Shown in pieces: positions 6,500 to 63,255 of a stretch of DNA of 64,000 nucleotides; position 1 is the stretch's first letter; each line of letters begins with the position of its first letter. Origin of the DNA: Acidimicrobiia bacterium (GTDB taxonomy: Bacteria > Actinomycetota > Acidimicrobiia > Spongiisociales > ZC4RG35). The notes beneath the pieces were generated by a model. That model saw only the letters and a list, made by a program, of their open reading frames with translations. It was not told the DNA's origin and made no database searches. Made by a program: the position numbers and the translations under genes. The stretch is from the NCBI GenBank assembly GCA_965220995.1, contig OZ244856.1, positions 450,928 to 514,927 of the forward strand. Reading direction: 5' to 3'.

Positions 6500-6670
6500 G
6501 CCTGGTCGTGGCGCCCCGGTCCCGCTCGCCGTCTACTCCCGACCGGCGCCCACCGACACCGGCCAAGCCCCCGACTCGGCCTTGCACCGCCCGGGCCCGG
6601 TCCGTCTGTTAATTTTGGCGCCATCATCGACCAGCCGATCATCGACCTCCAAAGGTACCCCAACTGGGTT

Positions 6671-8077: not shown

Positions 8078-8109
8078 GGCCTATGGGGTTGACAAGCTCG
8101 GGACGGGCG

Positions 8110-9978: not shown

Positions 9979-10141
9979 CGAAGGCTCCCGGCGCCGGCCC
10001 TTTTCGCCGGCGACCTACCGGACCCGGGAGTCTTCACCGGGGAAACGGAGCCGGCTGACCCCGCTGCGGGATGCTGGCAGACAGACTTGCCGGACTGAAT
10101 GGACATTAAAAACCTCAGGCTACCGGTTGCGGACCGGCCCA

Positions 10142-12231: not shown

Positions 12232-12289
12232 AGAGTTCTTTTCCTCCGGAGCCGCCGTTCGGCCAGTGTACCCCTTGCGCCCCGGGGTC

Positions 12290-13531: not shown

Positions 13532-14628
13532 AATCTGATGGGGCTGATCACATCCAACACCAAAGCAGCCACCCCCAAGAAGATAACCAACACGGTCACG
13601 CCCGCCGCGATAGATATCAGCACCGACGGCCGGGCCCGCCGGCGAAACACCTTCTCATACAGGGCCACCGCCACATGTCCCCCGTCCAGAGGGTAGGCGG
13701 GGATCAGGTTGAACACACCCAGAACAATATTCAGATAGGCCAGCAGGCGCATCACATCGGCCACTCCCCTTTCCCCGATCTGAGCGCCGATATTGGCCAG
13801 ACCGATCGGGCTGACCGGGCGATTATCCACCGACACCTCGCCACCGAACATCCCTCGGGCCAACTCACCCAGAGATGAGGGGTTCACCAACTGCCCCACG
13901 GCCCGGAACGTAATCAGAGCCGCCTCACCTATCTCGCCCGTGGCGGTAACCACCGCTTCCCCCAACCCCAGAGAACGAGACTCCCAGGTTGGTCCGATTC
14001 CCAAAAACCCCCGTTCGACCCCTCCATCCTGAGTGCGGGAGGACAGGACGGGCGTCACCACCATCACCTGCCCGTCCCGGCTGATTGTGATAGGCACCGG
14101 CTGATTGGGCCGGTCCCCGAGCAGAGCGGCGGTGTCCTCCCACTGATTGGTTGCAATCCCATCGACTCGCAGAATCACATCTCCCTCCTGGATACCCGCC
14201 GCTCTGGCCGGCGAAGTGGTCCCGTCGGCCATCTCCACCACCACCATCACCCGGTTGCTGAAATCGGCGTACCCGTTCACCATGTACAGTCCCACCAGGA
14301 TCACAAAGGCCATCAGGAAATTCAGCGCCACCCCGCTCAGGGCCACCACCACCTTCTGCCAGGTCTTTTTGTGCTGATAGGAACGTTCCGGCGGAGTCTC
14401 GTGGTCGGCCACGGGTCCCATTCCGGCGATCTTCACGAACCCCCCGAACGGCAGCAGACGAAAGCCGTATTCCGTCTCGCCTCTTTTCACCGACCACAAC
14501 CTCGGCCCGAATCCAAAAAACATCTCGGTGGCCTTCATTCCGGTGAAACGGGCAGCCAGAAAGTGCCCCAACTCGTGCACCGTGACGAAAAACACGATCC
14601 CGAGCACCACCGCCATGGCGCCCATCAT
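13528..14628 (-). CDS. rseP: Site-2 (M50) zinc metalloprotease RseP/Rip1.
   Basis: HELGH zinc motif within the N-terminal TM segment, an internal PDZ-like region, and a C-terminal LDGG motif. Confidence 0.8.
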   Translation of the reverse strand: MMGAMAVVLGIVFFVTVHELGHFLAARFTGMKATEMFFGFGPRLWSVKRGETEYGFRLLPFGGFVKIAGMGPVADHETPPERSYQHKKTWQKVVVALSGVALNFLMAFVILVGLYMVNGYADFSNRVMVVVEMADGTTSPARAAGIQEGDVILRVDGIATNQWEDTAALLGDRPNQPVPITISRDGQVMVVTPVLSSRTQDGGVERGFLGIGPTWESRSLGLGEAVVTATGEIGEAALITFRAVGQLVNPSSLGELARGMFGGEVSVDNRPVSPIGLANIGAQIGERGVADVMRLLAYLNIVLGVFNLIPAYPLDGGHVAVALYEKVFRRRARPSVLISIAAGVTVLVIFLGVAALVLDVISPIRL

Positions 14629-18757: not shown

Positions 18758-19660
18758 TCAGGCCCGGGGATGAGTCCTTTGATGAGTGGACCGCAGGTGG
18801 CGGCGACTGACGTTGGTGTAGACCTGGGTGGTGCCAAGATTGGCGTGTCCCAGCATCTCCTGCACACTGCGCAGGTCGGCCCCTCCTTCCAGCAAATGCG
18901 TGGCGAACGAGTGGCGAAGAGCGTGCGGAAAACTCCCCAGCCGCGATTGCACGATCCGCCTGATCTGACGAACTCCGATTCTTGCCCCTCGGATGCCCAC
19001 GAACAGGGCGTCTCCCGCTGCCGGGGTGGCCAGGACCGGACGCCCCTTCGCCAGCCATCTCGCCACAGCCCGCTGCGCGGGAACCCCGAGGGGGACCACC
19101 CGGTCCTTGCCGCCCTTGCCCGAGATGGTCGCCAGGTCCCTGTCCTCCACCACGAAGATGTTCAGGGAGGCCAACTCGGAGACTCGCAGACCCGAGCCGT
19201 AGGCCAGTTCCAGTATCGCTCGGTCTCGCAGATCCACCGGGTCGTTTCCATCCACCGCCTCGATGCCCTTGCTCAGTTGTCCTGCGGAAATCACCACCGG
19301 CAGCTTGCTCCGGGTCCCGGACATCGGAGAAGCCGCCACCGGGTTGGCGGAAATCTTCCCCTGTTCATGCAGACGCCCGAAGAACGAGTGAATCGCCGAG
19401 CGCTTGCGGACCACCGACGACCGCGCATACCGCCGGGTGTGCAGCCAAGCCGCGTATCGCCGAAAATCGGCGCGATCCACCTCCGGTATCGATCGGCGGT
19501 CCAGCCGGTCGCAGAAGTCCAGAAACTGGGTGATGTCTCTCCGGTAGGCCGCCACCGTGTGCTCCGACAGTCGTCGCACCCTTTCCAGCCAAGTCAAGTA
19601 CTCCGTCAAAGCGGAGTCGGCCCATTCGGGCGGGGATGGGATGGCCGCCACCCTGCACAT
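18758..19660 (-). CDS. xerC: Tyrosine recombinase XerC.
   Basis: Phage-integrase fold with the catalytic R...HxxR...Y set ([36 protein letters not shown]). Position upstream of dprA/comM matches mycobacteria. Confidence 0.85.
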
Positions 19661-19760
19661 GCTACGAAATCCCGGGCCCACGGAGTGGGAACAAGCCTCC
19701 ACCGGGAGTCAGACAGAGGGCGGCCCAGGATTGCGGGATGGTCGATCACCCAGGGCAAAC

Positions 19761-20825
19761 TCATCCCTTGGGACGAATCACACCACCCTCCTTGACCACC
19801 TTTCCTTCCGACTCCAGTTCGCCGATCCTCACCAACATTCGCGACAGCGGCCAACCCGTTTTTTCCATGAGTTCCTGTACCGCGACGCCGCTATCCCCGA
19901 TGGCCGCCAGCAGTTCATCCTGCCCCTGATCCTGCGACTCCCCGACGGTGGGCGCCACCACGCCCTCGGACTCCAGGAATTCCAGCAATTCCGAGGTGCT
20001 CAGCACCGGCAGGGCGCCGTCGCGGATCAGTTCGTTGCACCCCCGGGAGGTGGCCCGGTCGATGTCGCCAGGGATCGCCAACACTTCCCGTCCCTGTTCC
20101 AAACCCAACCGGGCGCTGATCAAGGCCCCGCCGCCGATGGCTGCCTCCACCACCAGCACCACCCGGGACAGACCGGTGATGATGCGGTTTCGGACCGGAA
20201 AGCGCCAAGGCTCCGGCACGGTTCCCGGAGGATATTCGGTGACCACCGCCCCACCACCCTGCAACAAAGCCTCCCCCAGGCTCCGATGAGAGACCGGATA
20301 CCAGCGATCGGGACCCGAGCCCAACACCGCGATCCCGCGGCCACCCGCTTCCACCACGCCGCGATGGGCGGACCCGTCCACCCCGCGGGCCAGTCCGCTG
20401 ATCACCGCCACGCCCCTTCGTCCCAGGGCGGCGCCCATCGTGCGAGCCAGATTGAGGCCGTAGCGGGTCGCTCGCCTTGATCCCACCACCGCCACTCCGG
20501 CCTCGGCGGGCAGATCTCCTCTGACAAACAGCACATCCGGGGGATCAGGAATGGCGGCCAGCCAGGGGGGATATTCCTCCGTCCCCAGCAACACCACTCC
20601 CACCCCCGCCGTCCGAAGTTCTTCCATCCGCCGGGAACTGGGGACCGAAACGGCCTTACGGGCGGCCGGCGGGCACTTGACCCGCCCGGTCTCGATCATC
20701 CGCACCGCTCCGGCCGGATCGCCGGCCTTCTGCACCAGGGAGTGGAGCCGACCGGGATGCAAACCCGAGTAGGCCAGCCTCACCCGGTGATCGAAGTAGG
20801 GGCAGGGCGGCCGGGGCGCGTTCAC
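19761..20825 (-). CDS. dprA: DNA-processing protein DprA (Smf).
   Basis: DprA Rossmann core (VAVVGSRRATRYG...VISGLARGVDGSAHRG...VLGSGPD) and a C-terminal winged-helix-like tail. Confidence 0.85.
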   Translation of the reverse strand: MNAPRPPCPYFDHRVRLAYSGLHPGRLHSLVQKAGDPAGAVRMIETGRVKCPPAARKAVSVPSSRRMEELRTAGVGVVLLGTEEYPPWLAAIPDPPDVLFVRGDLPAEAGVAVVGSRRATRYGLNLARTMGAALGRRGVAVISGLARGVDGSAHRGVVEAGGRGIAVLGSGPDRWYPVSHRSLGEALLQGGGAVVTEYPPGTVPEPWRFPVRNRIITGLSRVVLVVEAAIGGGALISARLGLEQGREVLAIPGDIDRATSRGCNELIRDGALPVLSTSELLEFLESEGVVAPTVGESQDQGQDELLAAIGDSGVAVQELMEKTGWPLSRMLVRIGELESEGKVVKEGGVIRPKG

Positions 20826-22288
20826 AAACCGGCCCGGTAGGCCAGCGCTTCCAGAACGTGGGCTTTGCGCACCGGCGTAGAACCTTCCAGATCGGCCAGG
20901 GTGCGGGAGACCCGCCGAACCCGATCGTATCCCCTGCCGGTCAAAAGGCCCTGGTCCAGATTGCGGGAAAGCGCCTTTTTGGCCGGTTCGCTCCAGGACA
21001 GGGCGTCCAGGCGCGAGGAAGTGAGATCACCGTTCAGGGCGCCGCGGGCCACTTGTCTCCGGCGAGCCTGCTCCACTCGGCCGCCCACCGCGGCGCTTGT
21101 TTCACCGGGCGCCCCGGTGAGTTCATCGGTCTCCATGCGTCCCAGGAACACCCGCACATCAAACCGATCCAGCAGTGGGCCCGACAGACGCCGCCGATAG
21201 CGATCCAAAGAGGCGGGTGAGCATCGGCACCGCTTCACGGTGTCGTTGCGCCATCCACACGGGCAGGGATTGGTGGCGGCCACCACCAGGGGGCGTCCCG
21301 GGAAGGTGGTGGAGATGCCCCGGCGGGTGATGGTCACGCAACCTTCTTCCAGCGGTTGGCGAAGAGCATCGATCAGGTGAGCCGGAAACTCCCCCAATTC
21401 ATCCAGAAAGAGCACCCCGTGGTGGGCCAGAGACAGATCCCCGGGCACCGGTATTCCGCTTCCCCCTCCCAGCAGGCCCACCAGGGAGACGGTGTGATGG
21501 GGAGCGCGGAAGGGTCGCCCAAAACCGGTCCGCCGGCGGTCCCCGGCCGCCCAAACCAGGGCCAGTTCCATTTCTTCGGACTTGGTCAGGGGAGGAAGAA
21601 TGCCCGGCAGGCGCTTGGCCAGCATGGTTTTTCCCATACCGGGAGGTCCCGACATCAGAAGATGGTGCCCGCCGGCGGCCGCGATTTCCATTCCCCGCCG
21701 TGCGAAGTCCTGACCCCTCACCTCCGCCAGGTCGAGCGCCGAAGAAGCGGGTGGCCGTTCGGCGTTCGGAACCACCGGTTCGACCTCCCCTTCCAGTACC
21801 CCGATGGCGTCCGACAATCTCTCCACCGCATACAGTTCCACCTCGGGCACCAGGGCCGCCTCCGACAGAGCCTCCCGGGGCGCCAGACAGGGAAGACCCT
21901 TCCGGGCAGCCACCAGGGCGGCGGCCAGGACGCCTTTGGACCGGCGCACCCGGCCATCCAGAGCCAATTCCCCAACCGCCACCACCCCCGGATGCCGGGG
22001 GGCGGCCTTGCCGTCGGCGATCAGCACCCCCAGGGCGATGGGAAGATCATATGCGGAACCGGCCTTGGGCAGGTCGGCCGGGGCCAGGTTGACGGTAACT
22101 TCGCTGCGGGGCATGTCATAACCCGACGACGCCATGGCGGCCTTCACCCGATAACGAGCCTCCCTCACGGCCGTGTCCGGCAGACCCACCAATCCGAACT
22201 TGGAGTTGGTCCTGCCCAGGTGCACCTCCACATTGACCGCCCGGGGATCGACCCCCACCATGGCAGCGGATAACATTGCACTGTTCAT
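20822..22288 (-). CDS. comM: YifB/ComM-family Mg-chelatase-like AAA+ ATPase.
   Basis: Lon-like N-domain, Walker A (MSGPPGMGKTMLAKRL) and a C-terminal ChlI/Mg-chelatase domain. Confidence 0.85.
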   Translation of the reverse strand: MNSAMLSAAMVGVDPRAVNVEVHLGRTNSKFGLVGLPDTAVREARYRVKAAMASSGYDMPRSEVTVNLAPADLPKAGSAYDLPIALGVLIADGKAAPRHPGVVAVGELALDGRVRRSKGVLAAALVAARKGLPCLAPREALSEAALVPEVELYAVERLSDAIGVLEGEVEPVVPNAERPPASSALDLAEVRGQDFARRGMEIAAAGGHHLLMSGPPGMGKTMLAKRLPGILPPLTKSEEMELALVWAAGDRRRTGFGRPFRAPHHTVSLVGLLGGGSGIPVPGDLSLAHHGVLFLDELGEFPAHLIDALRQPLEEGCVTITRRGISTTFPGRPLVVAATNPCPCGWRNDTVKRCRCSPASLDRYRRRLSGPLLDRFDVRVFLGRMETDELTGAPGETSAAVGGRVEQARRRQVARGALNGDLTSSRLDALSWSEPAKKALSRNLDQGLLTGRGYDRVRRVSRTLADLEGSTPVRKAHVLEALAYRAGL

Positions 22289-23672: not shown

Positions 23673-23846
23673 GTGCAGCCCGGTTCCTGTTTCCCCGATC
23701 TGTTCCTGTCCCATTCCCTGAATTAAGGAAAGCGGGTGTGACAGGTCAAGCACTCACCGGAGTTTCTCGGTGGAACGCATACCGGCGGCCACCGGCGCAA
23801 TCAGCCTTCTCCCCCCGACAGGGATACCGGATAGGGGCCGGGCGGC

Positions 23847-24113
23847 AATCTGTGAAATCAGACACTATGTCGCGAAACCGCCCCCGAAATTCCTGTCCCG
23901 AGGGCCCGCCCCCGCCACCACCTTTCCTGGGGTCGGGACGCGAATCCACCATACAGAACGAGGATTTCGTATTCCCAACAATATGGTCCCTGCGGCCGGT
24001 CTGGACGACGTCGGAACAGACCGGGAGGTGCTTGACTCCTATCACTATGTGACACCCGGGAGACAAAGTCAAGCCAAGAGCCACCCTGTTTTTCGCGACC
24101 CTCCCCAATCACC
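23847..24113. repeat. Copy A of a conserved ~268-nt intergenic structured element; candidate ncRNA or MITE-like repeat.
   Basis: About 90% identical to 63256..63524 in the same orientation. Shared ends: aatctgtgaaatcagacactat at the left and ccctccccaat at the right. Terminal inverted repeat GTCGCGAAA / TTTCGCGAC. Internal hairpin CCGGTCTG...CAGACCGG is identical in both copies. A second hairpin keeps its stem but has a different loop sequence in the two copies. Confidence 0.6.
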
Positions 24114-24168
24114 TATCCACGCAGTCTCTAAGAAACCCCGGCATGTCGGTTATCCGCTTGGCTCCCGG

Positions 24169-25272: not shown

Positions 25273-25944
25273 TCAGTGATCCTCTCCCCACAAGTCCGGC
25301 CGACGCCGACGGGTACGCTCCTGTCTTCGGGCAGTCCGCCAGCGGGCTATTTCCCGGTGGTTGCCCGATAAAAGTACCTCTGGGACCGACCACTCCCGGA
25401 AGGTGGCCGGGCGGGTATAGACCGGTTCCTCCAGCAGACCCTCCCGAAAGGACTCGAACACCACCGAGTCGGGGTTGCCGACTGCATTGGGCAGGAGCCG
25501 GACCATGCCCTCCAAGACCAGCAGGGCGGCCACCTCTCCGCCCGCCAGCACAAAATCCCCCACCGACACCTGTTCGTCGATGAAGTGCTCGGCGATTCGC
25601 TCATCCACTCCTTCGTAGCGCCCGCACACCAGGGTGAGATGATCAAGTTGCGCCCATCGATCCAAGGTGGCCTGATCCAGACGGTCCCCCGCCGGAGCAA
25701 AAAGCACCCGGTGAGTGTCCTCCAGGGGGTCGAGCGCCCGAGCCAGGGGTCCGGGCATCATGACCATCCCGGGGCCACCTCCGAAAGGGGCGTCGTCCAC
25801 CGCCCGATGAGCCCCCCGGGCATAGTCTCGCAGATCTATCAGGTCCACTTCGATCAGACTCGACTCCACGGCCCGGCCCACTACCCCCAACCCCATCGCC
25901 TGAGGGAAATAGGTGGGAAAGATGGTGATTATCGAGATCTTCAT
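25273..25944 (-). CDS. trmD: tRNA (guanine37-N1)-methyltransferase.
   Basis: [11 protein letters not shown]-terminus and a SPOUT-fold pattern. Start set at the Met 8 codons into the track ORF. Confidence 0.85.
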
Positions 25945-26076
25945 GTTCCGAACCGCCGGACCTTCCAAAAGCCCTGATCGCCCTCCACATTATCCTTCCC
26001 CACCATTGTGGTGGGCTGCATTTCTCGGGTTGTGACCAGGACCGTCGGCCCACGGTTTCGGTGCGGGTAAGGCGCG

Positions 26077-27009
26077 ATGTCGAAAACCGAACCCACCCAC
26101 CGGGAGGCCACTTCCGGGGATTCGCTCCCCGAGACCGCCCGCCGGGTGGGAGAACATCCCGGTGACCACGCTCGACTCGACGCCATCATGGCCCACGCCC
26201 CCCACGAGAACTTTCCCGTGGCGCTCTCGATCCTGCCGGGCCGCTACCGAACCCACCTGCGGGCCATCTACGGCTATGCCCGACTGGTCGACAATCTGGG
26301 CGATGAATACCCGGGTAATCGAACCGGGGCGCTGAACTGGCTGGAGAGTCAACTCGACGCCCTGTTCGCCGGGGCGGATTCCCACCCGGTTCTCCGGCGG
26401 TTGGCGCCCACGGTGGCGCAATTCGGGCTGTCGAGGACCCCGTTCGACCAGTTGCTGGCCGCCAATCGATGGGACCAGCGCCGCGCCGGCTATGCCAATT
26501 GGAACGAACTGATGGAATACTGCGAGCTGTCGGCCAACCCGGTGGGCCATCTCGTTCTGTCGGTGTTCGAGTCGGCCACCCCCGATCGCCTGGCTGCTTC
26601 CGACGCGGTGTGCAGCGGTTTACAGGTCCTGGAACATCTCCAGGACGTGGGGGAGGATGCCCGGGCGGGCCGGGTCTATCTGCCGGCGGACGACCTGGAG
26701 CGATTCGGATGCACAATCGAGGATCTGACCGCGGCCAACACCTCGCCGGGGCTGCGGCGGGTGGTGGAACGCCAGGCGATCCGGGCCGCGGAAATGATGA
26801 ACAAGGGTCGATGGCTGGTGGGGTCGCTTCGGGGTTGGGCCAGGGTGGCCGTCTCGGGGTACGTGGCGGGAGGATTGTCGGGACTGGCAGCTTTGAAAAC
26901 CTGCGAATACAACGTACTGCCAAGCGCCCGGCCGGCCGGCTCCGTTGCTGTGCTGCGCCGCTACCTCCCTTTGTATCTCCGATCTGCGCTCCGCCGCAGT
27001 GGAAACTGA
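26077..27009 (+). CDS. hpnC: Squalene/phytoene-synthase-family enzyme, HpnC-like (hydroxysqualene synthase).
   Basis: trans-isoprenyl-diphosphate-synthase head-to-head fold. ENFPVA motif and YARLVDNLGDE Asp-rich box, typical of HpnC. The true start may be the internal Met at about 26185. Confidence 0.6.
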   Translation: MSKTEPTHREATSGDSLPETARRVGEHPGDHARLDAIMAHAPHENFPVALSILPGRYRTHLRAIYGYARLVDNLGDEYPGNRTGALNWLESQLDALFAGADSHPVLRRLAPTVAQFGLSRTPFDQLLAANRWDQRRAGYANWNELMEYCELSANPVGHLVLSVFESATPDRLAASDAVCSGLQVLEHLQDVGEDARAGRVYLPADDLERFGCTIEDLTAANTSPGLRRVVERQAIRAAEMMNKGRWLVGSLRGWARVAVSGYVAGGLSGLAALKTCEYNVLPSARPAGSVAVLRRYLPLYLRSALRRSGN

Positions 27010-27028
27010 ATCGGGTTGGGAACGCGGA

Positions 27029-27898
27029 ATGGTCACTACCGAATCGGCATACCGGCAATGCCAGAAGATAACCTGGGCCGAGGCCCGGAATTTTGCTTAT
27101 GGCATCCGGCTTCTGCCTTCCGACAAAAGACGGGCGATGGCGGCGCTGTACGCCATGTCCCGGCGAATTGACGATATCGGTGACGGCGACTGGCCGTCCG
27201 ACCGGAAACTGCGAGCCCTGGACCACCTGCACGCCACGATCCGCGCACTGGAAGCCGGCCGGATTCCCGATCCCGATGATCCGGTGTTGGTGGGTCTGGG
27301 TGACGCCGCCCGCCGTTTTCCCATTCCCCTGGCGGCGCTGCATGAGATCGTGGAGGGTTGCGAACAGGACGTCCGGGGCAAGACTTATCAGACCATGCAG
27401 GACACGGTTGCCTACTGTCGCCTGGTGGCCGGGTCGGTGGGTCGGCTGTCGTTGGGTATCTTCGGTAGCCGGTCGGGCCCACCCCATCCCCGGCCGGAAC
27501 CCTCCGAGATGGCCGATGACCTGGGAGTAGCCCTGCAGCTCACCAATATGCTGCGCGACATCACAGAAGACCATCGGATGGGACGCATCTACCTCCCCGA
27601 GCAGGACCGGGACCGCTTCGGCATCGCTTCGGGCCAGTGGGCGCCGCCTGATCGGGTGGCGGCGCTGGTCGAGCATGTCGCCCGGCAGGCGACGACGTGG
27701 TTTGAACGGGGATTGCCCCTGTTGGACTACCTCGACCCGCGCAGCCGGGCCTGCACGGCGGCCATGGTTGGTATCTACCGACGGGTCCTGCACCGCATTC
27801 GATCCGAACCCACCCGTCCGCTTCACGAACGAGTGGGCCTTCCGGTGTGGGAAAAGATGCTGGTGGCGGGTCGCAGTCTTTCCGGTTTGCGGCCTTGA
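27029..27898 (+). CDS. hpnD: Presqualene diphosphate synthase HpnD-like (phytoene/squalene synthase family).
   Basis: ARNFAYGIRLLPSDKRRAMAALYAMSRRIDDIGDG and a second Asp-rich region NMLRDITEDHRMGRIYLP. Confidence 0.6.
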   Translation: MVTTESAYRQCQKITWAEARNFAYGIRLLPSDKRRAMAALYAMSRRIDDIGDGDWPSDRKLRALDHLHATIRALEAGRIPDPDDPVLVGLGDAARRFPIPLAALHEIVEGCEQDVRGKTYQTMQDTVAYCRLVAGSVGRLSLGIFGSRSGPPHPRPEPSEMADDLGVALQLTNMLRDITEDHRMGRIYLPEQDRDRFGIASGQWAPPDRVAALVEHVARQATTWFERGLPLLDYLDPRSRACTAAMVGIYRRVLHRIRSEPTRPLHERVGLPVWEKMLVAGRSLSGLRP

Positions 27899-27915
27899 GA
27901 CAAGACCGGCCGCGA

Positions 27916-29247
27916 GTGGTGGTGGTGGGGGGAGGACTGGCCGGTCTGGCGGCGGGGATTGAAGCCGCCGATCGGGGAGCGGCGGTGACCCTGTTGGAGC
28001 GGCGACCGCGTCTGGGAGGCGCCACGTGGTCCTTTCGACGCCGGGGAATCTGGTTCGACAACGGACAGCACGTCTTCCTACGCTGCTGCGACTCCTACCT
28101 GGCGTTCCTTCGGCGCATCGGCTCGGCCGACCAGGTGTTCCTTCAGGAGCGCCTGAAGATCCCCGTCCTGCGTCCCGGTGGACCGATCGGATCGATCCAC
28201 CGCACCGCCGGGCCCGCCCCGCTTCATCTGGCCCGGTCTCTGCTCTCCTATCCGCACCTGAGTCTCCGCCAGAGAGTCGGTGTGTTGCGAGCCGGCGGGG
28301 CTCTCCGTCGACTCGATCCCGACGATCCGTCGCTGGACAAAGTGACATTCGGCGACTGGCTGACCGCCCACCGACAGGACACCGAGGCCATCGACACGTT
28401 CTGGAACCTGGTGATATTGCCCACCGTCAACGTTTCGGCCTGGTCGGCCTCTCTCAAACTGGCCGCCAAGGTATTTGTGACGGGACTTCTGACCCAGGCT
28501 TCCGCCGCCGATATCGGCTGGGCCAAGGCACCGCTTTCGGTTCTTCACGCCGATGCCGCCCAACAAGCCTTGGAGAGGACCGGATCGCAGGTCAGGACCG
28601 GCGTCGGGGTCACCGGCGTCCGCCCAGGGCCTAGTGGTAAACCTCAGGTGCGGATCCAAAGCGATGTGATCGCTGCCGACTCGGTGGTGGTGGCGGTGCC
28701 TCACGACGAGGTCGGCGCCCTGTTGCCGCCCCGAAGCGTCCCCTCCCAGGACCGGCTGAAGAACCTGGGAGTCTCCCCCATTGTGAACGTTCACCTGGTG
28801 TACGATCGGACGGTGACGGAAAAGCCGATGTTCGCGGCGGTGGGAAGCGACGTGCAGTACGTATTCGACCGAACGGAAGGGGCCGGGTTGGACGATGGCC
28901 GCCAGTGTCTCACCATTTCCCTGTCCGCGGCCGATGCATACATCGGTCGCGGTTCGGCCGATCTGATCGAACACTTCAGCCGGGAGCTGACCCGCCTGCT
29001 GCCCGCCGCGGGGAGGGCCCGGATCACCGAGGCGATGGTCACCCGGGAAGGGTCCGCCACTTTCTTCGGCGCCCCGGGAACCAATGCCCTGCGGGCGGGC
29101 GTCCGGTCCGAAATACCCGGGATCTACCTGGCCGGGGCCTGGTGCGACACCGGATGGCCCGCCACCATGGAGGGAGCGGTCCGAAGTGGTGTCAAGGCCG
29201 GTCGACTGGCAGCGGAATTCGCGGCCGGCGGCCGGGCGGCAGCATGA
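27916..29247 (+). CDS. hpnE: FAD-dependent amine-oxidase-family desaturase, HpnE-like (hydroxysqualene dehydrogenase).
   Basis: GxGxxG dinucleotide fold VVVVGGGLAGLAAG immediately after a GTG start at 27916. A TTG at 27895 overlapping the hpnD stop is also possible. 440-450 aa as for HpnE; C-terminal amine-oxidase region. Confidence 0.6.
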   Translation: MVVVGGGLAGLAAGIEAADRGAAVTLLERRPRLGGATWSFRRRGIWFDNGQHVFLRCCDSYLAFLRRIGSADQVFLQERLKIPVLRPGGPIGSIHRTAGPAPLHLARSLLSYPHLSLRQRVGVLRAGGALRRLDPDDPSLDKVTFGDWLTAHRQDTEAIDTFWNLVILPTVNVSAWSASLKLAAKVFVTGLLTQASAADIGWAKAPLSVLHADAAQQALERTGSQVRTGVGVTGVRPGPSGKPQVRIQSDVIAADSVVVAVPHDEVGALLPPRSVPSQDRLKNLGVSPIVNVHLVYDRTVTEKPMFAAVGSDVQYVFDRTEGAGLDDGRQCLTISLSAADAYIGRGSADLIEHFSRELTRLLPAAGRARITEAMVTREGSATFFGAPGTNALRAGVRSEIPGIYLAGAWCDTGWPATMEGAVRSGVKAGRLAAEFAAGGRAAA

Positions 29248-30266
29248 ACCGACCCCGGTCGGCGCCCCTTATCCTGGAACGGACCGCTGTCCTGACCGAC
29301 CCTGCCCTCCGGGAAGCCGTGGATCGTCTGGCGGCGGATCTGGCCACACCGGCCCGCTATCACTTCGGGTGGGTGGACCACCAGGGTCATCCCGATCCCA
29401 ACAGCCGTCCCGGCAAGGGTGTGCGGCCCACTCTGGCTCTGCTGTCCGCCGAGGCGGTGGGCGCCGCGCCCGAGGTGGCCCTGCCCGGAGCGGTGGCCGT
29501 GGAATTGGTCCACAATTTTTCGCTCGTCCATGACGACATAGTGGACGACGATCACCAACGCCGACACCGGCCAACCCTGTGGAAGGTCTTCGGGGTGGGC
29601 GACGCCGTCATCGTGGGCGACGCACTGATGGGACTGGCTCTCCAGTTGCTCCTGGAGGAATCCACCTCGGTCGCCGCCAGGGCCGCCGCCGACCTGACCC
29701 GGGCCACCATGGACATGATCGCCGGGCAGTACATGGACATGTCCTTCCACGCCCGCCCCCGGGTGACGGTGGAAGAGTGCTGGGAGATGGTGTCGCTCAA
29801 GACGGGTGCCCTGCTGGCGCACGCCAGTGCGGTGGGGGCCATATTGGCCGGGGCGCCCCACCCGGTGGTGGAGGCGTTGCGTTGCTTCGGAAGTCAATTG
29901 GGCCTGGCCTTTCAAGCTCAGGACGACCTGCTGGGCATTTGGGGAGACCCGGCTGTAACCGGCAAACCGGTCGGCAATGACCTGCGGGAGAGAAAAAGGT
30001 CAATCCCCGTGACGGTCGCCCTATGTTCGGAAACCGCCGCCGGCGCCGAACTGGCCTCTCTCTATGCCCGGGACCACCTCACCGAAGACGACCTGGCCCG
30101 GGCAGCCTCCCTGGTCGAGGAGGCCGGAGGACGGGAAGCCACCGAGGCGGCCGCCCGTGATCGACTGCTCAGGGCCGCCGAGGCGCTGTCGACGGTGGAC
30201 TTGGACCCGGCCCCTGCCAGAGAAATGCTGGAACTGGCTCAGTTTGTGGTCAACCGGGAGTTCTGA
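29244..30266 (+). CDS. Polyprenyl diphosphate synthase (FPP/GGPP synthase family).
   Basis: First DDxxD box LVHDDIVDDD and second box FQAQDDLLG. ATG overlaps the hpnE stop (ATGA). The track ORF has 113 spurious upstream codons. Confidence 0.8.
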   Translation: MNRPRSAPLILERTAVLTDPALREAVDRLAADLATPARYHFGWVDHQGHPDPNSRPGKGVRPTLALLSAEAVGAAPEVALPGAVAVELVHNFSLVHDDIVDDDHQRRHRPTLWKVFGVGDAVIVGDALMGLALQLLLEESTSVAARAAADLTRATMDMIAGQYMDMSFHARPRVTVEECWEMVSLKTGALLAHASAVGAILAGAPHPVVEALRCFGSQLGLAFQAQDDLLGIWGDPAVTGKPVGNDLRERKRSIPVTVALCSETAAGAELASLYARDHLTEDDLARAASLVEEAGGREATEAAARDRLLRAAEALSTVDLDPAPAREMLELAQFVVNREF

Positions 30267-30283
30267 CCACCGGCACAGACCCG

Positions 30284-30667
30284 CTATTGGGCCGAGACTA
30301 TTTCTACCTGGTACTCGGCCAGATCACGATCGCAGGTCACCAACTCAAGGTCTTCCATTAGCGCCTGCGCCACCAGCATGTGGTCGAACGGATCCCGATG
30401 CAACCAAGGCAGTTCACCCACCCGGGCCGCGTGTTCCACGGTGATGGCCAGTAGGGCGAATCCGCAATCTCTCAACACCTGTTCGGCGCCATCGGGCACC
30501 GACAGTTTGCCGATGGAACTCTTGATGGCCATCTCCCATATGCTGACGGCGCTGACTGCCACATAGTTGTCCGGACTGGCGATCAGACGACGCGCCGTTT
30601 GGCCAAGCCGGCGGTCATCGGACAGCCACCACAACACCACATGAGTGTCCAGAAGAAGCCTTCGCAC
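30284..30667 (-). CDS. vapC: Type II toxin VapC (PIN-domain ribonuclease).
   Basis: PIN-domain pattern with conserved acidic residues (LLLDTHVVLWW...D). 127 aa, directly downstream of a small antitoxin gene. Confidence 0.75.
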   Translation of the reverse strand: MRRLLLDTHVVLWWLSDDRRLGQTARRLIASPDNYVAVSAVSIWEMAIKSSIGKLSVPDGAEQVLRDCGFALLAITVEHAARVGELPWLHRDPFDHMLVAQALMEDLELVTCDRDLAEYQVEIVSAQ

Positions 30668-30669
30668 CG

Positions 30670-30912
30670 TCAGGCGGGGTGCTTGACGCCCTCAAAAGCG
30701 GCAATTACCTCCGGAGACGTGGTGTCGAAATCGGGTGCCATCCACACCTTCCCCTTCCATGCACCAGGGAGGCGAGAGGCCGGTTCGTAGACGGCCAACC
30801 GCAGATAGGGCTCACCGTTGCGACAGATCACCACTTCTTCTCCCGCCCATACCAAACGACCCAGCCGCGACAACTGCGACTTGGCTTCGTGCATGTTCAC
30901 CCGAGTGGTCAT
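30670..30912 (-). CDS. vapB: Type II antitoxin (Phd/YefM-like VapB).
   Basis: 80 aa beginning MTTRVNMHEAKSQLSRL, a typical Phd/YefM antitoxin N-terminus. Lies 2 nt upstream of vapC. Confidence 0.7.
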   Translation of the reverse strand: MTTRVNMHEAKSQLSRLGRLVWAGEEVVICRNGEPYLRLAVYEPASRLPGAWKGKVWMAPDFDTTSPEVIAAFEGVKHPA

Positions 30913-30926
30913 AATCTTGAAAGCCT

Positions 30927-30937
30927 AGCTTAGCTAA
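30927..30937. promoter_or_regulatory. Perfect palindrome TAGCTtAGCTA upstream of vapB; candidate autoregulatory operator.
   Basis: 5-1-5 inverted repeat 15 nt upstream of the vapB start, in a locally AT-rich divergent region shared with chrA. Confidence 0.3.
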
Positions 30938-31025
30938 ACATATCAGACTAATCACTCCTGGGGGCCCCGGCGACCCACCACAGGATGCCCGACGGCCGAG
31001 GCGTGGCTGGTAAATTCGAGGACCG

Positions 31026-32243
31026 GTGAACGAACGCAGCCAGCCGACCCCCGGGGCTCTGAGCAGATTCCGGGAGGTCTTTTTAGTGGCGCTTCGGCTG
31101 GGTCTCACCTCCTTCGGAGGTCCGGTAGCCCACTTCGGATACTTCCACAGCGAATACGTTGAACGGCGCCGCTGGGTGAACGAAGGGGAATTCGCCGACC
31201 TTTTGGCGCTTTCCCAGGCCTCTCCCGGAGCAGCCAGTTCGCAGTTGGGGTTCGCCATCGGGATGGTGAGAGGAGGGTTGGCCGGCGGCCTGGGGGCGTG
31301 GCTGGGGTTCACACTGCCCTCAGCCATCATTTTGACCTTGCTGGGACTGGGCGCCGCCCAGATCGGCGAGGCGGCCGAGGGATGGATACACGGTCTGGTG
31401 GTGGTGGCGGTACCGGTGGTGGCCCTGGCGGTGTGGAGGCTTTGGTCCAAGCTGGCCCCCGACCCGGTCCGAAGTTCCATGGCGGTCGCATCGACGGTGG
31501 CTCTGATCGCTTTCCCGTCCTCCACCAGAATCACCGCCGTTTTGGTGATCGTGGCCGCAGGACTGCTGGGGTGGCTCTTGTACCGAAAGGACCGCACGGA
31601 ACAGGACGGGCCACGCTTTCCGTCATTCAGCAGACGCTCGGGGACCCTGGCGGCGGTGATCTTTTTCGGCCTGCTGATCATCCTTCCCGTTGCCCGACAC
31701 CTCACCAAGGCGCAGATTGTGGATGTCACCGACGCCTTCTACGGCGCCGGCGCCCTGGTGTTCGGGGGCGGCCCGGTGGTGCTTCCCCTGCTGGAGGCTG
31801 AGGTGGTGCAACCGGGATGGGTGGAGCCTGAATTGTTTGTGGCCGGATTCGGCGCGGCGCAGGCCATTCCCGGCCCGGTGTTCACGTTTTCCTCCTACCT
31901 GGGAGCGGTAATGACCCCCGAACCCAACGGCATCGGGGGCGCCGCCCTGGCGCTGGCCGCACTCTATCTCCCCTCCCTGCTGATGGTCCTGGCCGTCCTG
32001 CCGTTCTTCGCCGCCCTCCGCACCCACCGGGGAATCCAAGCAGCCCTGCGGGGAGTCAACGCGGCAGTGATAGGCATCCTGCTGTCTGCCCTCTACGACC
32101 CATTGTGGACCAACGCCATATTGCAACCCTCGGACCTGGCCCTGGCTCTGGGGGCATTCGGGCTGCTGGCCTTCTGGAAGCTCCCTCCCTGGCTGGTAGT
32201 GCTCCTCACGGCCGCCGGAGGCGGGCTCCTGGCTGCTGTTTGA
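31026..32243 (+). CDS. chrA: Chromate transporter ChrA (two-domain CHR family).
   Basis: Duplicated CHR domains with FGGPVAHFGY and FGGGPVVLPLL motifs. About 10-12 TM segments. 405 aa. Confidence 0.8.
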   Translation: MNERSQPTPGALSRFREVFLVALRLGLTSFGGPVAHFGYFHSEYVERRRWVNEGEFADLLALSQASPGAASSQLGFAIGMVRGGLAGGLGAWLGFTLPSAIILTLLGLGAAQIGEAAEGWIHGLVVVAVPVVALAVWRLWSKLAPDPVRSSMAVASTVALIAFPSSTRITAVLVIVAAGLLGWLLYRKDRTEQDGPRFPSFSRRSGTLAAVIFFGLLIILPVARHLTKAQIVDVTDAFYGAGALVFGGGPVVLPLLEAEVVQPGWVEPELFVAGFGAAQAIPGPVFTFSSYLGAVMTPEPNGIGGAALALAALYLPSLLMVLAVLPFFAALRTHRGIQAALRGVNAAVIGILLSALYDPLWTNAILQPSDLALALGAFGLLAFWKLPPWLVVLLTAAGGGLLAAV

Positions 32244-32297
32244 CATCCTTCTTGAGCGATGGCTCTCGGGGCTGAGCCCTTCCCTACATCCCCGGTG

Positions 32298-33269
32298 TCA
32301 GGCGGTTTTCCCAAACATTGAAAGCTGCTCCGGCCGGGAGGAATCACCTTCTGAGAGTCCTTTGCCATCCTGGTGCGGGGGATGCAGCATTGCCTCCAGT
32401 TCGTCGACGGATCGGATGGGTACCGCGCCCCGCTTTTCCAGCGTCTCATTTCCCGGGCCTTCTCCCGCTCCCCTCCAGACTCCGACCCGCAGACCTCCTT
32501 TGAGAGCCTCGGTCGCCCCCGACCATGTGCCTCCCTTGCCCGTCTCGCTGGCCACTGCCACCGTGAGGTTGGACAAGGCGTAGATAATCTTGTTCCGTCC
32601 CATGGCGTTCCATACCCGGAAAGGGGCCTTGGGACTGTAAGGAGTACACATGACGGCGCGCTCCTCGTGGATTGCTCTGCGCACATCGGGGCTTTGCAAC
32701 CCACGCATAAACGACCCCGCCAGGACGCCGATGATGGTTCCTCCTGCCTGTATGGCGGCGTTCATAGCCAGTTGATCCACCCCACGCGCTCCGCCGGAGA
32801 CCACCGGATAGCCGAGTTCCACTGCCTTCCCCGCGATGCCCCTGGCCGCTTCCGCCCCCTCGGGGGAGACATCACGGCTGCCCACCACCCCGATACCGGG
32901 CTGATCAAGCAATCCAAAAGCTCCGGCGGCGTAAATCAGGGCGGGGGCCTTGGGTCCGAGTCGACAAACCAGACGCTGGGGAAAATGGTCATCAAAATGG
33001 GTAACTGTCCGAATACCGGAATGTTCGAGTTGCTCCAATTCGAAAGCCATGACTCTCACCCGATCCAGCAACACCCATACCCGGTCCGCCAGCGCATCGG
33101 ACAATCCGTAATCCCTCACCATCTCTTTCCGGTCCTGCCCCAACAACGCGCCAGGCCGCGGGCAGGTCTCTAGAAGTCGCCAGTACTCCCGCGCCGAGAG
33201 AGGCCGTACCTCCTTGCCATGCATCCGGCTCACCAAGAGCACCGTGGCAGCCGAGTCGTCATTCCTCAC
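32298..33269 (-). CDS. DprA/Smf-like (SLOG/DNA_processg_A fold) protein; candidate PsyrA-like antitoxin partner.
   Basis: GIGVVGSRDVSPEGAEAARGIAGKAVELGYPVVSGGARGVDQLAMNAAIQAGGTIIGVLAG, the DprA Rossmann signature. Overlaps the upstream RecQ-PRTase gene by 4 nt. Confidence 0.6.
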   Translation of the reverse strand: MRNDDSAATVLLVSRMHGKEVRPLSAREYWRLLETCPRPGALLGQDRKEMVRDYGLSDALADRVWVLLDRVRVMAFELEQLEHSGIRTVTHFDDHFPQRLVCRLGPKAPALIYAAGAFGLLDQPGIGVVGSRDVSPEGAEAARGIAGKAVELGYPVVSGGARGVDQLAMNAAIQAGGTIIGVLAGSFMRGLQSPDVRRAIHEERAVMCTPYSPKAPFRVWNAMGRNKIIYALSNLTVAVASETGKGGTWSGATEALKGGLRVGVWRGAGEGPGNETLEKRGAVPIRSVDELEAMLHPPHQDGKGLSEGDSSRPEQLSMFGKTA

Positions 33270-35329
33270 CTGATTGATCTCCCGCTGGCATCAGCCAAGG
33301 CAAAGGGGTAAACCGAACCTGATCCGGCCAGAAGCAACTCACTACCCACGGCTGTCAGGGTCCACCTGGAATCAACGACATCATCCACGAGCAACACCGG
33401 ACCTCTGGGAACCGCCCCCACGATCCTAAATGCGTCTCGGACGTTCCGATGTTGTTGATGGCTGTTTTGCATAGTTTTCTGTGGCTCCGTGTCACGGACC
33501 TTTTCAACCACATTCTTATAAGGAACTCTCAGCAATGCCGCCAAACGAGCCGCAAAGTCCTCAACGAGGTCTGGATTTCTCAACGATGGAACAGAGGCAG
33601 CCCAGGCCGGAAAAGGCTGAGGCGCCCACCGATTTCTGATCAGATCGGCGGCGGCCGCCACCAATCGCTCATCAAAGCGCCCTTCCGATTGCTTGCCCGA
33701 ACGGACGAGAGTCCCCCAACCACCATCCTTCCAGACCGCCAGGGCCCGTCCTGGTTCGACGAGTTGGTCCTTGGCGATTCTCTTCCGGTTCGGCCATTGT
33801 TTGCGTGGTTCGATGTTCAGATCGACCCCTCGAAGGAACTCGATAACCCTTTGGACAACGGCGGGATCAAGACGAATTGCAAGGCTCAAACCAGTGCAGT
33901 TATCACAGATGCCACACGGATTTGCTATCAGGTCGTCGAGGTAGGAGCCCAAGAGTTGCATACGACAGGCGCCGGTTCGTATGTACTCGTTCATCTGCTT
34001 TTGCTCGACCCTCCGCTGAGCAGTAACCAACTCAACCCGGCGCCGATCGAATTTCCACCCTTTCAAAGTTCTTCGCCAGACAGAGCCTTCCTGTTCAACC
34101 GCCCCCTCAACCTCGAGATTCTTCAGCAGCTTCTCGAGTTGACCCCAACCGATATTCAACGACTGGAACAACTCGTCCCGAGACACCCCTTCCGTCTTCT
34201 CCTCCAGCAAGGCCACCACCTGCTCGGCTTGTGGTGCGGCCGGGAAGGCCCCCTGGATGAAGTAATCCTGAATGTCGGTGTCTTCTCCACCGCGCAACAG
34301 TATGCCCCAAGACTCGTTCAGTGAACGGCCCGCCCGGCCCACTTGTTGGTAATACGAGATCGGCGAACCGGGTGACTGGTAGTGAATTACAAAGGAGAGA
34401 TCAGGTTTGTCGAAACCCATACCGAGGGCTGAGGTTGCAACCACCACCTTCACCTGATTGGACAGGAGAGCCTGTTCAATCCCAACCCGGTCTTCAGAGT
34501 GCAAACGACCCCAGTATGAAACCGCCGAGATTCCAACTGATGACAGCCATTCCCCTACCCGCTGTGCATCTCTTACGGTGAGGCAATAGATCACCCCTGT
34601 TCCATCCAATCTTGACAGTTGGTCGGCCAGCCATGCCAGACGCTCCGCCTGTGATGGGATCTCGAGGACATGCAACCGTAGTCCGCGACGCGCCAAGGTT
34701 CCCCTGACAGTGGATAACCCTGAACCCAGTTGGTCAACGATGTCTCCTACGACGCGGTCATTGGCCGTCGCCGTGCAACACAGAATCGGGACACCGGGAA
34801 GGAGCCTCAGAACGCGGGTGATCCTCCGGTAGTCAGGCCGGAAATCGTGGCCCCAGTCGGAAATGCAATGTGCTTCGTCAATCACCAGCAGCCCGCTTCT
34901 CCGCAGGATGACCGGCAGGAGTTCGCCCCGGAACTTGCGATTGGCCAGCCGCTCCGGCGATATCAATAACAGGTCAACCGCATCGGCATATAGTTTCTCT
35001 TCCACCTCCGCCCACTGTGCCGGGTTAGAACTGTTGATAGTCTCAGCCCTGACACCCATTCGCTCTGCAGCTTCAATCTGATTGCGCATCAGGGCCAACA
35101 GAGGGGAAATCAGGAGGGTAGGCCCCGCACCTCGCGTCCGGAGCATTCGGGTTGCAATAAAGTACACCGCGCTTTTGCCCCACCCGGTTCGCTGAACCAG
35201 GAGAACCCGTCGGAGTTCTGCAACCAGTCCGCGGATCGCGTCGAGTTGACCCTCCCGGAAGTCAGTTGTCGGATCCCCGGTCAGCTTGCGCAGAGAATCC
35301 AGAGCTTCCGAAGCAAACTTGTCACTCAT
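33266..35329 (-). CDS. RecQ-family DNA helicase fused to a C-terminal ComF/GntX-type phosphoribosyltransferase domain; candidate PsyrT-like toxin/defense helicase.
   Basis: Helicase motifs: Walker A TGWGKS; motif II DEAHCISDWGHDFRPDY. RecQ Zn-finger CRMQ...CGICDNC. C-terminal PRTase signature RNVRDAFRIVGAVPRGPVLLVDDVVDSRWTLTAVGSEL. Local GC is clearly lower (about 48-55%) than the surrounding DNA. Confidence 0.65.
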   Translation of the reverse strand: MSDKFASEALDSLRKLTGDPTTDFREGQLDAIRGLVAELRRVLLVQRTGWGKSAVYFIATRMLRTRGAGPTLLISPLLALMRNQIEAAERMGVRAETINSSNPAQWAEVEEKLYADAVDLLLISPERLANRKFRGELLPVILRRSGLLVIDEAHCISDWGHDFRPDYRRITRVLRLLPGVPILCCTATANDRVVGDIVDQLGSGLSTVRGTLARRGLRLHVLEIPSQAERLAWLADQLSRLDGTGVIYCLTVRDAQRVGEWLSSVGISAVSYWGRLHSEDRVGIEQALLSNQVKVVVATSALGMGFDKPDLSFVIHYQSPGSPISYYQQVGRAGRSLNESWGILLRGGEDTDIQDYFIQGAFPAAPQAEQVVALLEEKTEGVSRDELFQSLNIGWGQLEKLLKNLEVEGAVEQEGSVWRRTLKGWKFDRRRVELVTAQRRVEQKQMNEYIRTGACRMQLLGSYLDDLIANPCGICDNCTGLSLAIRLDPAVVQRVIEFLRGVDLNIEPRKQWPNRKRIAKDQLVEPGRALAVWKDGGWGTLVRSGKQSEGRFDERLVAAAADLIRNRWAPQPFPAWAASVPSLRNPDLVEDFAARLAALLRVPYKNVVEKVRDTEPQKTMQNSHQQHRNVRDAFRIVGAVPRGPVLLVDDVVDSRWTLTAVGSELLLAGSGSVYPFALADASGRSIR

Positions 35330-35503
35330 TGATTGGGGACCCCCGGATAGCTGATTCTCAGTTGCTGTGTATAGGCAAGCCTATTTGAAGGGTGTGACAT
35401 CGAGCCCGGACCCGATAAGCACCCAGCACCTCCCAAGCACACCTGTATTACAAACGCGGCTTGCCGTCGGGGCTGCCGCAGCGCAGGGCCCGGGGCGCAA
35501 CTC

Positions 35504-36415
35504 CTACCAGAGGACCTGGTTGGTGGCGCTTTTCACCGCGTCGTCAATGGATCCGGTGTAGATCCCGGTGGAGAGATACTTCCAGCCCGCGTCGGGGAAG
35601 ATGGTGACCACGGTGCCCGATCGCATCTCGCCGGCTATCCGCAGAGCCACCGCCAGGGCCGCTCCGCAGGAAGGGCCGGCGAACATGCCTCCCACGGATA
35701 ACAGGCGGCGGGTGTGTTCGATGGTTGGGGCAAGCCGCACCAGTATCCGGCGATCGATCCGGTCGGCGTCGAAGATGGGAGGAACGTAACCGTCGTCTAT
35801 GGAACGCAGGCCGGTGATCAACTCCCCCATGGGAGGTTCGGCCGCCACCACCCGGGCCCCCGGGAAGGACTCGCGGATCGCCGCGCCTGCCCCCATCAAC
35901 GTTCCCCCGGTTCCCAGGCCGGCCACCAACGCATCCACCCGGTCGAGTTCCTCCACGATCTCCCGGCCGGTCCCCCGGTAGTGGGCCTCCACATTGGCCG
36001 GGTTTTCGTATTGGTTGAGCATCAGATAGTCGCCGCCGGCCGCCAGTTCCTCGGCCATGCGCACCGCACCGTTCGATCCCTCCTCTCCGGGAGAAAAGAC
36101 AATCTCGGCGCCGAAGGTTCTCAGGGTCTCGATCCGCTCGGCGCTGGCGCCTTCCGCCATCACCACCGTGAACGGCAATCCCTCCATCGCCGCCAGGCGA
36201 GCCAGGGCGATGCCGGTGTTCCCCGAGGAAGGTTCCAACAGACGTATCCCGGAGGTCAGAAGTCCCTCCGAGCGGGCCCCTTCCACCATCGCCACCGCAA
36301 TCCGGTCCTTGATCGATCCGGTGGGCAGTACCCACTCCAGTTTGGCAAATATGTCGACGCCCCCCTGCGAAAAGGCATCCAATCGGACCAGGGGAGTGGG
36401 AAACAGGCCCATCAT
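35504..36415 (-). CDS. cysM: Cysteine synthase CysM (uses the thiocarboxylated sulfur carrier CysO).
   Basis: PLP-dependent fold with Lys motif TGSIKDR and Gly-rich loop GLGTGGT. Position downstream of cysO and mec matches the mycobacterial pathway. Confidence 0.8.
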   Translation of the reverse strand: MMGLFPTPLVRLDAFSQGGVDIFAKLEWVLPTGSIKDRIAVAMVEGARSEGLLTSGIRLLEPSSGNTGIALARLAAMEGLPFTVVMAEGASAERIETLRTFGAEIVFSPGEEGSNGAVRMAEELAAGGDYLMLNQYENPANVEAHYRGTGREIVEELDRVDALVAGLGTGGTLMGAGAAIRESFPGARVVAAEPPMGELITGLRSIDDGYVPPIFDADRIDRRILVRLAPTIEHTRRLLSVGGMFAGPSCGAALAVALRIAGEMRSGTVVTIFPDAGWKYLSTGIYTGSIDDAVKSATNQVLW

Positions 36416-63237: not shown

Positions 63238-63255
63238 GGGCCGTACGGCCAAGAG

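Follow-up and report, generated by a model that had tools for sequence, protein, structure and literature searches.

The window analysed here is a 64-kb stretch of DNA from a metagenome-assembled genome (MAG) of an uncultured member of the Acidimicrobiia, and our subject is a block of 9.4 kb between trmD and cysM that carries the hpnC-hpnD-hpnE-pps operon, a vapBC pair, the transporter gene chrA, and psyrTA, a RecQ-like helicase gene with its DprA-like partner. We find that this block is very probably an old, vertically inherited chromosomal arrangement shared by a whole clade, and not a recent insertion. Within it, close relatives differ in the psyrTA cassette (2.2-3.1 kb), which keeps its place between cysM and chrA but has been exchanged or has lost its toxin gene. 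A preliminary description of this DNA had taken the block for a composite genomic islet inserted into a housekeeping neighbourhood. Its gene list and coordinates, and the order of trmD, the divergent hpnC-D-E-pps, vapBC, chrA, the RecQ-phosphoribosyltransferase (PRTase)/DprA-like pair and cysM, were correct by Pfam, NCBIfam and PADLOC; the islet itself did not hold up, the same gene order being found clade-wide with a composition that is uniform apart from psyrT.

Genes were mapped from six-frame open reading frames (ORFs), the local codon-position pattern of guanine plus cytosine (GC), and scans with Pfam, NCBIfam and PADLOC. A scan of species-representative genomes returned only uncultured Acidimicrobiia as the closest relatives of the window TrmD (82% and 81% identity, then 58-65%), so the mycobacterial gene order against which the neighbourhood had been judged is the wrong reference. 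The order purH-folD-moeZ-mec-cysO-cysM-(psyrT)-psyrA-chrA-(vapBC)-pps-hpnE-hpnD-hpnC-trmD-rplS-lepB is kept in at least six species-level lineages. Loci with this order come from the window species, including L001, a contig of the same species with 99.4% nucleotide identity to the window overall; from L003 and L004, which represent other species; and from L164, L165, L167-169 and L172, which were reached through PsyrT homologues. The block was present in 8/8 related loci, no empty site was seen, and psyrT and vapBC were the only variable parts; chrA was found in every clade member, and cysM adjoins psyrT or psyrA in all of them. Identity to the window proteins was 62-84% for the block and 67-96% for the flanking housekeeping genes, with PsyrA as the least conserved block protein (64-69%). 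The term accessory, applied earlier to the entire block, therefore suits psyrT and vapBC, which are present or absent among the relatives, and not the remainder, which is conserved in the clade. Gene order conserved across the lineage, which the preliminary description had itself named as evidence against an islet, is what the loci of the relatives show, save for the composition of psyrT.

GC content, which averages 63.7% over the window, falls to 56-57% only at 33.0-35.5 kb, and this dip is psyrT (57.0% GC; GC at third codon positions, GC3, 0.62). The other block genes have 59-67% GC, comparable to rplS (59%) and lepB (61%). A tetranucleotide scan likewise gave psyrT as the strongest outlier in the window (z = 4.3-4.6) and z of -0.7 to 1.4 for the remaining block; psyrT was thus the only part of the block to deviate in the sliding GC and tetranucleotide analyses that had been proposed as a check for an islet. 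The strong GC dip reported earlier is real, then, but it is confined to psyrT and recurs in every lineage: psyrT has 56.5-58.1% GC against 64-65% around it in L003, L164, L165, L167 and L172, and 62% against 68% in an Acidimicrobiaceae genome that carries psyrTA in another context. A GC content below that of the host is a constant trait of psyrT, with no sign of recent arrival, and because it is found in every lineage the dip does not date the arrival of the block.

Marks of mobility were sought as well. A tRNA scan found none in the 64 kb, Rfam models at gathering threshold matched no family over the same length, a search for flanking repeats over 24-37 kb gave only the short, low-identity matches typical of GC-rich coding DNA, and a promoter/terminator scan of 25-36.6 kb gave counts not above those of shuffled sequences. 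The only recombinase gene near the block, xerC (18758-19702), was considered as an island integrase and rejected, as it lies ~6 kb away in an rpsB-xerC-dprA-comM context conserved in all relatives. The features by which genomic islands are recognized, namely deviant composition along the whole element, a border tRNA, integrase or repeat beyond chance-like short matches, and presence or absence of the element as a whole, were not found. A recent acquisition of all 9.4 kb as a composite islet in the trmD neighbourhood could appeal to the mixed functions of the block, which include two toxin-antitoxin/defence modules, to its one strong GC dip, and to the absence of rimM, rpsP and ffh beside trmD. 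Since the order is shared by the clade, with flank-like divergence in at least six species-level lineages and normal GC and tetranucleotide composition outside psyrT, and since the borders lack a tRNA, integrase or repeat and the far flank is cysM..purH instead of rimM, we regard such an acquisition as extremely improbable.

Linkage of rpsP, rimM, trmD and rplS is near-universal in bacteria. In the window trmD-rplS(-lepB) is intact and the rpsP-KH-rimM half is detached, as in the rest of the clade. Searches with tblastn found none of ffh, rpsP, the KH protein gene or rimM in the whole 64 kb, and the outgroup-type thiolase gene that elsewhere lies between rimM and trmD is also missing from the window. 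More distant Acidimicrobiia (L006, L007, L008, L010, L014, L015, L017 and L050) have ffh-rpsP-KH(-rimM) upstream of trmD, with 1-3 genes for a thiolase, a Gmad2 protein, or MFS or Na/H transporters separating the rimM/KH side from trmD. Because these distant relatives keep the genes and the window has none of them, the synteny break is real and derived; the break noticed earlier therefore stands, with Acidimicrobiia in place of mycobacteria as the frame of reference. The block had also been placed inside an old neighbourhood, but its far side is cysM-cysO-mec-moeZ-folD-purH and not rimM-rpsP-ffh, which argues for a rearrangement breakpoint and not for an insert in a continuous neighbourhood. 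The rimM-trmD junction is a recurrent soft spot, already split by 1-3 unrelated genes in other Acidimicrobiia, and as L009 and L011 have no detectable ffh, rpsP, KH or rimM within the upstream flank available (10 kb and 3.8 kb), it seems to have been broken more than once in the class.

In the direction that we infer, an old rearrangement would have broken the ancestral ffh-rpsP-KH-rimM...trmD linkage immediately upstream of trmD, leaving trmD beside four independent modules (hpnCDE-pps, vapBC, chrA and psyrTA), and the block would have evolved along with the genome ever since. An ancient island is the other way to place these modules together: they could have been assembled by horizontal transfer in the ancestor of the clade and later ameliorated to host composition. 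The juxtaposition is indeed unique to the clade, the nearest hpnC-D-E-pps cassettes outside it have other neighbours, and psyrTA stands in another context in Acidimicrobiaceae. We nevertheless consider this origin unlikely: neither mobility genes nor repeats have left a trace, the modules are separate units that alternate in strand, hpnCDE-pps is a widespread operon complete in itself, and a rearrangement breakpoint accounts for the data without transfer, although the age of the event makes the two hard to separate. An old rearrangement followed by vertical descent implies that a mixture of lipid, toxin-antitoxin, metal and defence genes beside a disrupted ribosomal operon can be ancient and common to a whole lineage, and that the expected neighbourhood must be taken from the right relatives.

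By its sequence, the helicase/DprA-like pair is the known PsyrTA (RqlHI) system, a toxin-antitoxin pair that has been described as acting against phage (Sberro 2013; Russell & Mulvey 2015, PMC4670107; Millman 2022, 10.1101/2022.05.11.491447). PsyrT matches its PADLOC model at 877.6 bits over residues 7-683 of 687 (model positions 6-686 of 689) and contains the Pfam domains DEAD, Helicase_C and RecQ_Zn_bind, followed by an NCBIfam GntX/ComF-type PRTase at 593-677. Its catalytic motifs are all intact in the translation: TGWGKS at 48-53, DEAH at 151-154, the zinc cysteines C455, C472, C475 and C478, and the phosphoribosyl pyrophosphate (PRPP) loop VLLVDDVVDS at 645-654, whose aspartates match residues whose mutation abolishes RqlH toxicity (PMC4670107). 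psyrT is upstream of psyrA, co-oriented with it and overlapping it by 4 nucleotides (nt; GTGA), in the order of rqlH-rqlI (Table 1). The pair thus shares with PsyrTA/RqlHI the two-gene operon, the ~690-amino-acid (aa) RecQ-like helicase with a C-terminal PRTase and the DprA-like protein after it, and both PADLOC models are matched over their full length. Look-ups of the exact window PsyrT and PsyrA sequences, and of P0001, gave no entry.

In an AlphaFold (AF2) model of PsyrA (predicted local distance difference test, pLDDT, 75.8), residues 4-83 form an N-terminal domain of five helices, with a Rossmann fold after it, and the top Foldseek matches of the model were SpDprA 3uqz, a full-length DprA, and ShosA 8zva, the latter over the full length of the model. 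ShosTA (PMC11961720) is similar in its DprA-like antitoxin, built of a SAM-like five-helix N-domain and a Rossmann domain, and in a toxin with a PRTase domain; it differs in that ShosT is without a RecQ helicase module, and the window PsyrA scores 268.7 bits on the PsyrA model against 106.5 on the ShosA model. No PsyrT-PsyrA complex was among the matches listed in searches of PDB sequences. In RqlHI genotoxicity resides in the PRTase domain of the helicase and is curbed by the DprA-like partner. By analogy, PsyrA would bind and restrain PsyrT, the freed PRTase activity would damage DNA metabolism, and PsyrTA would be expected to act as an abortive-infection-type defence. The system described here differs from PsyrTA/RqlHI as published in having one fixed chromosomal address between cysM and chrA throughout the clade, not a place on a mobile island, and in that its alleles are exchanged in place and its toxin gene is repeatedly lost with the antitoxin kept, whereas Russell & Mulvey (PMC4670107) found the opposite orphan pattern, rqlH without rqlI, to be common. 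Outside the clade, an Acidimicrobiaceae genome (L170/L171) has psyrTA at 8001-11059 (PsyrT 65% identity) in surroundings that resemble a housekeeping region, with an SCP2 gene on one side and a GFA gene on the other, and psyrT and psyrA are 113 bp apart and not overlapping.

The divergence of the cassette does not follow that of the genomes that carry it. Five PsyrT proteins were 72-77% identical in pairwise comparison, a star-like matrix that is incongruent with the flanks, where identities are structured (L003-L167, 87.6%; L003-L165, 83.0%; the window to four psyrT-carrying species, 72-75%). Between L003 and L167 PsyrT is only 75.8% identical against the 87.6% of the flanks, and nucleotide identity, 78-93% in the flanks, changes with sharp edges to 61-79% over the stretch bounded by the ends of cysM and psyrA. 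Synonymous divergence (dS) for this pair was 1.26 in psyrT and 2.10 in psyrA against 0.40-0.70 in ten flanking genes, with a ratio of nonsynonymous to synonymous divergence (dN/dS) of ~0.1 throughout; high dS at the same dN/dS indicates that the psyrTA alleles are older than their carrier genomes, and not less constrained. The clearest case is L165 against L172: the 5 kb to either side of the cassette show 95-98% identity, but the stretch made up of the cysM-psyrT spacer, psyrT and the initial ~195 nt of psyrA shows only 34-85% (mean ~75%), with a 190-nt patch at the 3' end of psyrT that is 96-100% identical. The diverged part of PsyrA ends at a conserved LLDRxRxMAFELEQLE motif inside the N-terminal helical domain, and an alignment of 50 sequences shows greater variability at PsyrA residues 15-73 than in the Rossmann core. 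Diverged alleles of this kind would be swapped in by homologous recombination that crosses over in the cysM-psyrT spacer and within psyrA, and the exchanged unit would comprise psyrT and the ~40-65 N-terminal codons of psyrA.

Loss of psyrT with retention of psyrA was seen in a strain of the window species (L001), a close relative (L173) and a different species (L004). In L001, 88 bp stand in place of positions 33190-35375 of the window, with psyrT and the 46 bp ahead of it missing; its psyrA is 61% identical to the window over the first ~100-125 nt and ~99% over the rest, and has a 4-nt deletion (window 32418) by which the conserved C-terminal tail is replaced. L173, from another sample, represents a third haplotype; it too is without psyrT and has an intact psyrA, the 5' end of which is 99% identical to L001 and 75% to the window, and in neighbouring segments its background departs from both by up to 8%. 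L004, a different species, is without psyrT but has its last 31 codons in place (87% identical to those of L003, E = 1.8e-14). On at least two occasions, then, psyrT was removed, the end points being different, and in each case (L001, L173 and L004) psyrA was kept; psyrT without psyrA was not found among the related loci examined. Toxin loss thus appears to be tolerated and loss of the antitoxin alone not, as would fit a toxin-antitoxin relationship.

Several points weigh against this account of an old block with a turning-over cassette. Weak codon bias in psyrT (GC3 ~0.6) could account for part of its high dS and, together with the low conservation of PsyrA, would suit faster evolution in place, by relaxed or diversifying selection or by local hypermutation, instead of allele replacement. 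Evolution in place is nonetheless improbable in our view, given that dN/dS is the same as in the flanks, that PsyrT is no more diverged in distant than in close pairs, that genomes 96% identical differ by 25% over a cassette that has abrupt borders and, within it, a 96-100% patch, and that the junction segment is 99% identical between L001 and L173 on backgrounds 4-8% apart. All genomes compared are MAGs or metagenome contigs, a local assembly chimera is possible in any single one of them, and L002 ends inside psyrA, as occurs where strains differ; psyrT presence and absence and the mosaics might then be artefacts made from mixed strains. The psyrT-less state was, however, recovered independently in a 385-kb contig (L001), in a 3.1-Mb contig (L004, where the 31-codon remnant is in frame) and in L173, the psyrT-plus state in contigs of 1-3.3 Mb, and the junctions preserve reading frames, so that we give assembly artefacts almost no credence. 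In the window species either state, psyrT-plus or psyrT-minus, may be the ancestral one. The place of ffh-rpsP-KH-rimM in the clade was not located, and inversion, translocation or several steps are all possible. Lastly, no squalene-hopene cyclase was seen in the window.

Allele replacement at a fixed address allows a further, tentative proposal, which we hold as possible and somewhat doubtful: psyrT and the N-terminal five-helix (SAM-like) domain of PsyrA may form a matched specificity cassette that is exchanged as a unit by homologous recombination. The first ~65 residues of PsyrA would then recognise the cognate toxin and the DprA/Rossmann body would be generic, so that the recombination borders would point to the N-terminal domain as the toxin-matching part. 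Alleles would circulate in a lower-GC gene pool common to the clade under a phage arms race, and toxin-less strains would keep psyrA either to guard against an incoming psyrT or because it has a second function. The locus resembles chromosomal defence hotspots (e.g. the E. coli defence islands, 10.1101/2022.06.09.495481) in its variable defence content between conserved flanking genes and in exchange that apparently proceeds via the flanks. It differs from them in that the slot always holds PsyrTA, with the allele and the presence of the toxin gene varying and not the type of system, and in that one crossover point lies inside the antitoxin gene. In-place allele replacement and repeated toxin loss with the antitoxin kept, at one locus in several species, make it a clean natural example for the study of PsyrTA.

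The other modules of the block are more stable. hpnC-D-E-pps is a widespread four-gene cassette with other neighbours outside the clade, the nearest outside examples having HpnC identities of 60-62%; the hpnC-hpnD-hpnE order, the translational coupling and the adjacent polyprenyl diphosphate synthase are those of the HpnCDE squalene operon in many metagenomic loci. No squalene-hopene cyclase or further hpn gene was found among the window ORFs scanned, which is a difference from the HpnCDE squalene operon. HpnCDE reportedly carry out a three-step squalene pathway, in work attributed to Pan et al. in 2015. On family membership and this published pathway, HpnD, HpnC and HpnE are predicted to act in squalene synthesis and would turn farnesyl diphosphate from the adjacent synthase into squalene in three steps. 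The best NCBIfam match of pps was 'family 2 encapsulin cargo polyprenyl transferase' (404.7 bits against a cutoff of 450), and no encapsulin gene was seen nearby. Two radical-SAM genes were considered as HpnH and rejected, as they are CofG and CofH: cofH (622 aa, its N-terminus extended by a long stretch) and cofG are separate genes, lie beside ispG at 8110-11302 (-) and belong to F420 precursor synthesis, unrelated to hopanoid side-chain synthesis. An MMPL protein at 1077-3680 showed only weak resemblance to HpnN.

The PIN toxin gene vapC is preceded by a small antitoxin gene, the arrangement of VapBC; the antitoxin family is weakly indicated, as the window VapB has no Pfam match and its L169 orthologue has a weak PhdYeFM match. 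vapBC is present in the window, L001, L003, L004 and L167-169 and absent from L165/L172 and from L164, where 14 codons of vapC and the spacer on the chrA side remain. Its divergence is flank-like (dS 0.51 and 0.70 for L003-L167), and it is ancestral to the clade and was lost twice. VapBC would act as a PIN-toxin module and ChrA would export chromate; the four modules appear functionally independent, with biochemical functions predicted from family membership.

Table 1. Features of the trmD-cysM interval in window coordinates, with the evidence for each
Feature	Position	Strand	Evidence and remarks
trmD	25273-25968	-	Pfam tRNA_m1G_MT 1.3e-49; left anchor; starts conserved trmD-rplS-lepB run; 81-84% identity in clade
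trmD/hpnC divergent spacer, 108 bp	25969-26076	.	Clade-specific synteny breakpoint; ffh-rpsP-KH-rimM expected on this side
hpnC, squalene synthase HpnC	26077-27009	+	TIGR03464 268.7 bits, above 250.45 cutoff; Pfam SQS_PSY
hpnD, presqualene diphosphate synthase	27029-27898	+	TIGR03465 best match, 255.3 bits, below 278.6 cutoff
hpnE, hydroxysqualene dehydroxylase	27895-29247	+	TIGR03467 397.2 bits, above 283.05 cutoff; 4-nt overlap with hpnD and with pps
pps, polyprenyl (farnesyl/geranylgeranyl diphosphate, FPP/GGPP-type) diphosphate synthase	29244-30266	+	Pfam polyprenyl_synt 9.3e-58; fourth gene of hpn operon
vapC, PIN-domain toxin	30284-30667	-	Pfam PIN 5.3e-19
vapB-like antitoxin, 80-aa ORF upstream of vapC	30670-30912	-	73-84% identity in relatives
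chrA, chromate efflux transporter	31026-32243	+	TIGR00937 307.6 bits, above 171.7 cutoff; two Chromate_transp stretches, full-length two-repeat CHR protein
psyrA (= rqlI), DprA-like antitoxin	32298-33269	-	PADLOC PsyrA 2.3e-80, 268.7 bits; Pfam DNA_processg_A
psyrT (= rqlH), RecQ-like helicase with C-terminal PRTase, 687 aa	33266-35329	-	PADLOC PsyrT 1.4e-264; predicted toxin/effector
Variable cassette: 46 bp promoter-proximal to psyrT, psyrT and first ~125 nt of psyrA	33145-35375	-	Segment that differs between the window and conspecific L001
cysM	35504-36415	-	Pfam PALP; right anchor; starts conserved cysM-cysO-mec-moeZ-folD-purH run

To the left of the block ispG, rip, cdsA, frr, pyrH, tsf, rpsB, xerC, dprA, comM, echA, a UPF0102 gene, lepB, rplS and trmD all lie on the (-) strand, and to its right the (-) run picks up again with cysM, cysO, mec, moeZ, folD and purH. 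For cysM the best NCBIfam matches were cysteine synthase models, all below cutoff (cysKM 294.3 against 344.15). Further small variable slots surround the conserved block in some relatives: L172 has two extra ORFs without a Pfam match between hpnC and trmD (18997-20345), L004 has ~2.7 kb of additional DNA between lepB and the UPF0102 gene (11774-14471), and L165 has a cadherin-domain gene after lepB (20945-22064).

Elsewhere in the window, a direct repeat of ~300 bp (86% identity) occurs in the lepB-UPF0102 spacer (23822-24121) and downstream of a leuA-like gene (63225-63532). It was found only in the window species (L001 and L002) and not in other clade members; as a structured RNA it had no Rfam match, and folding z-scores of -0.7 and -0.2 against shuffled sequences gave no signal. 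A second low-GC and tetranucleotide outlier (58-60% GC, z = 2.0) at 56978-58004 (-) consists of an overlapping pair of PIN_10 (126 aa) and HTH_66 (239 aa) genes that looks like a toxin-antitoxin-type module. A gene for a CcrM-like adenine DNA methyltransferase at 6299-7507 (+) overlaps the end of an unannotated 361-aa ORF at 5414-6499 (-), and may be an orphan methyltransferase or the remnant of a restriction-modification system.

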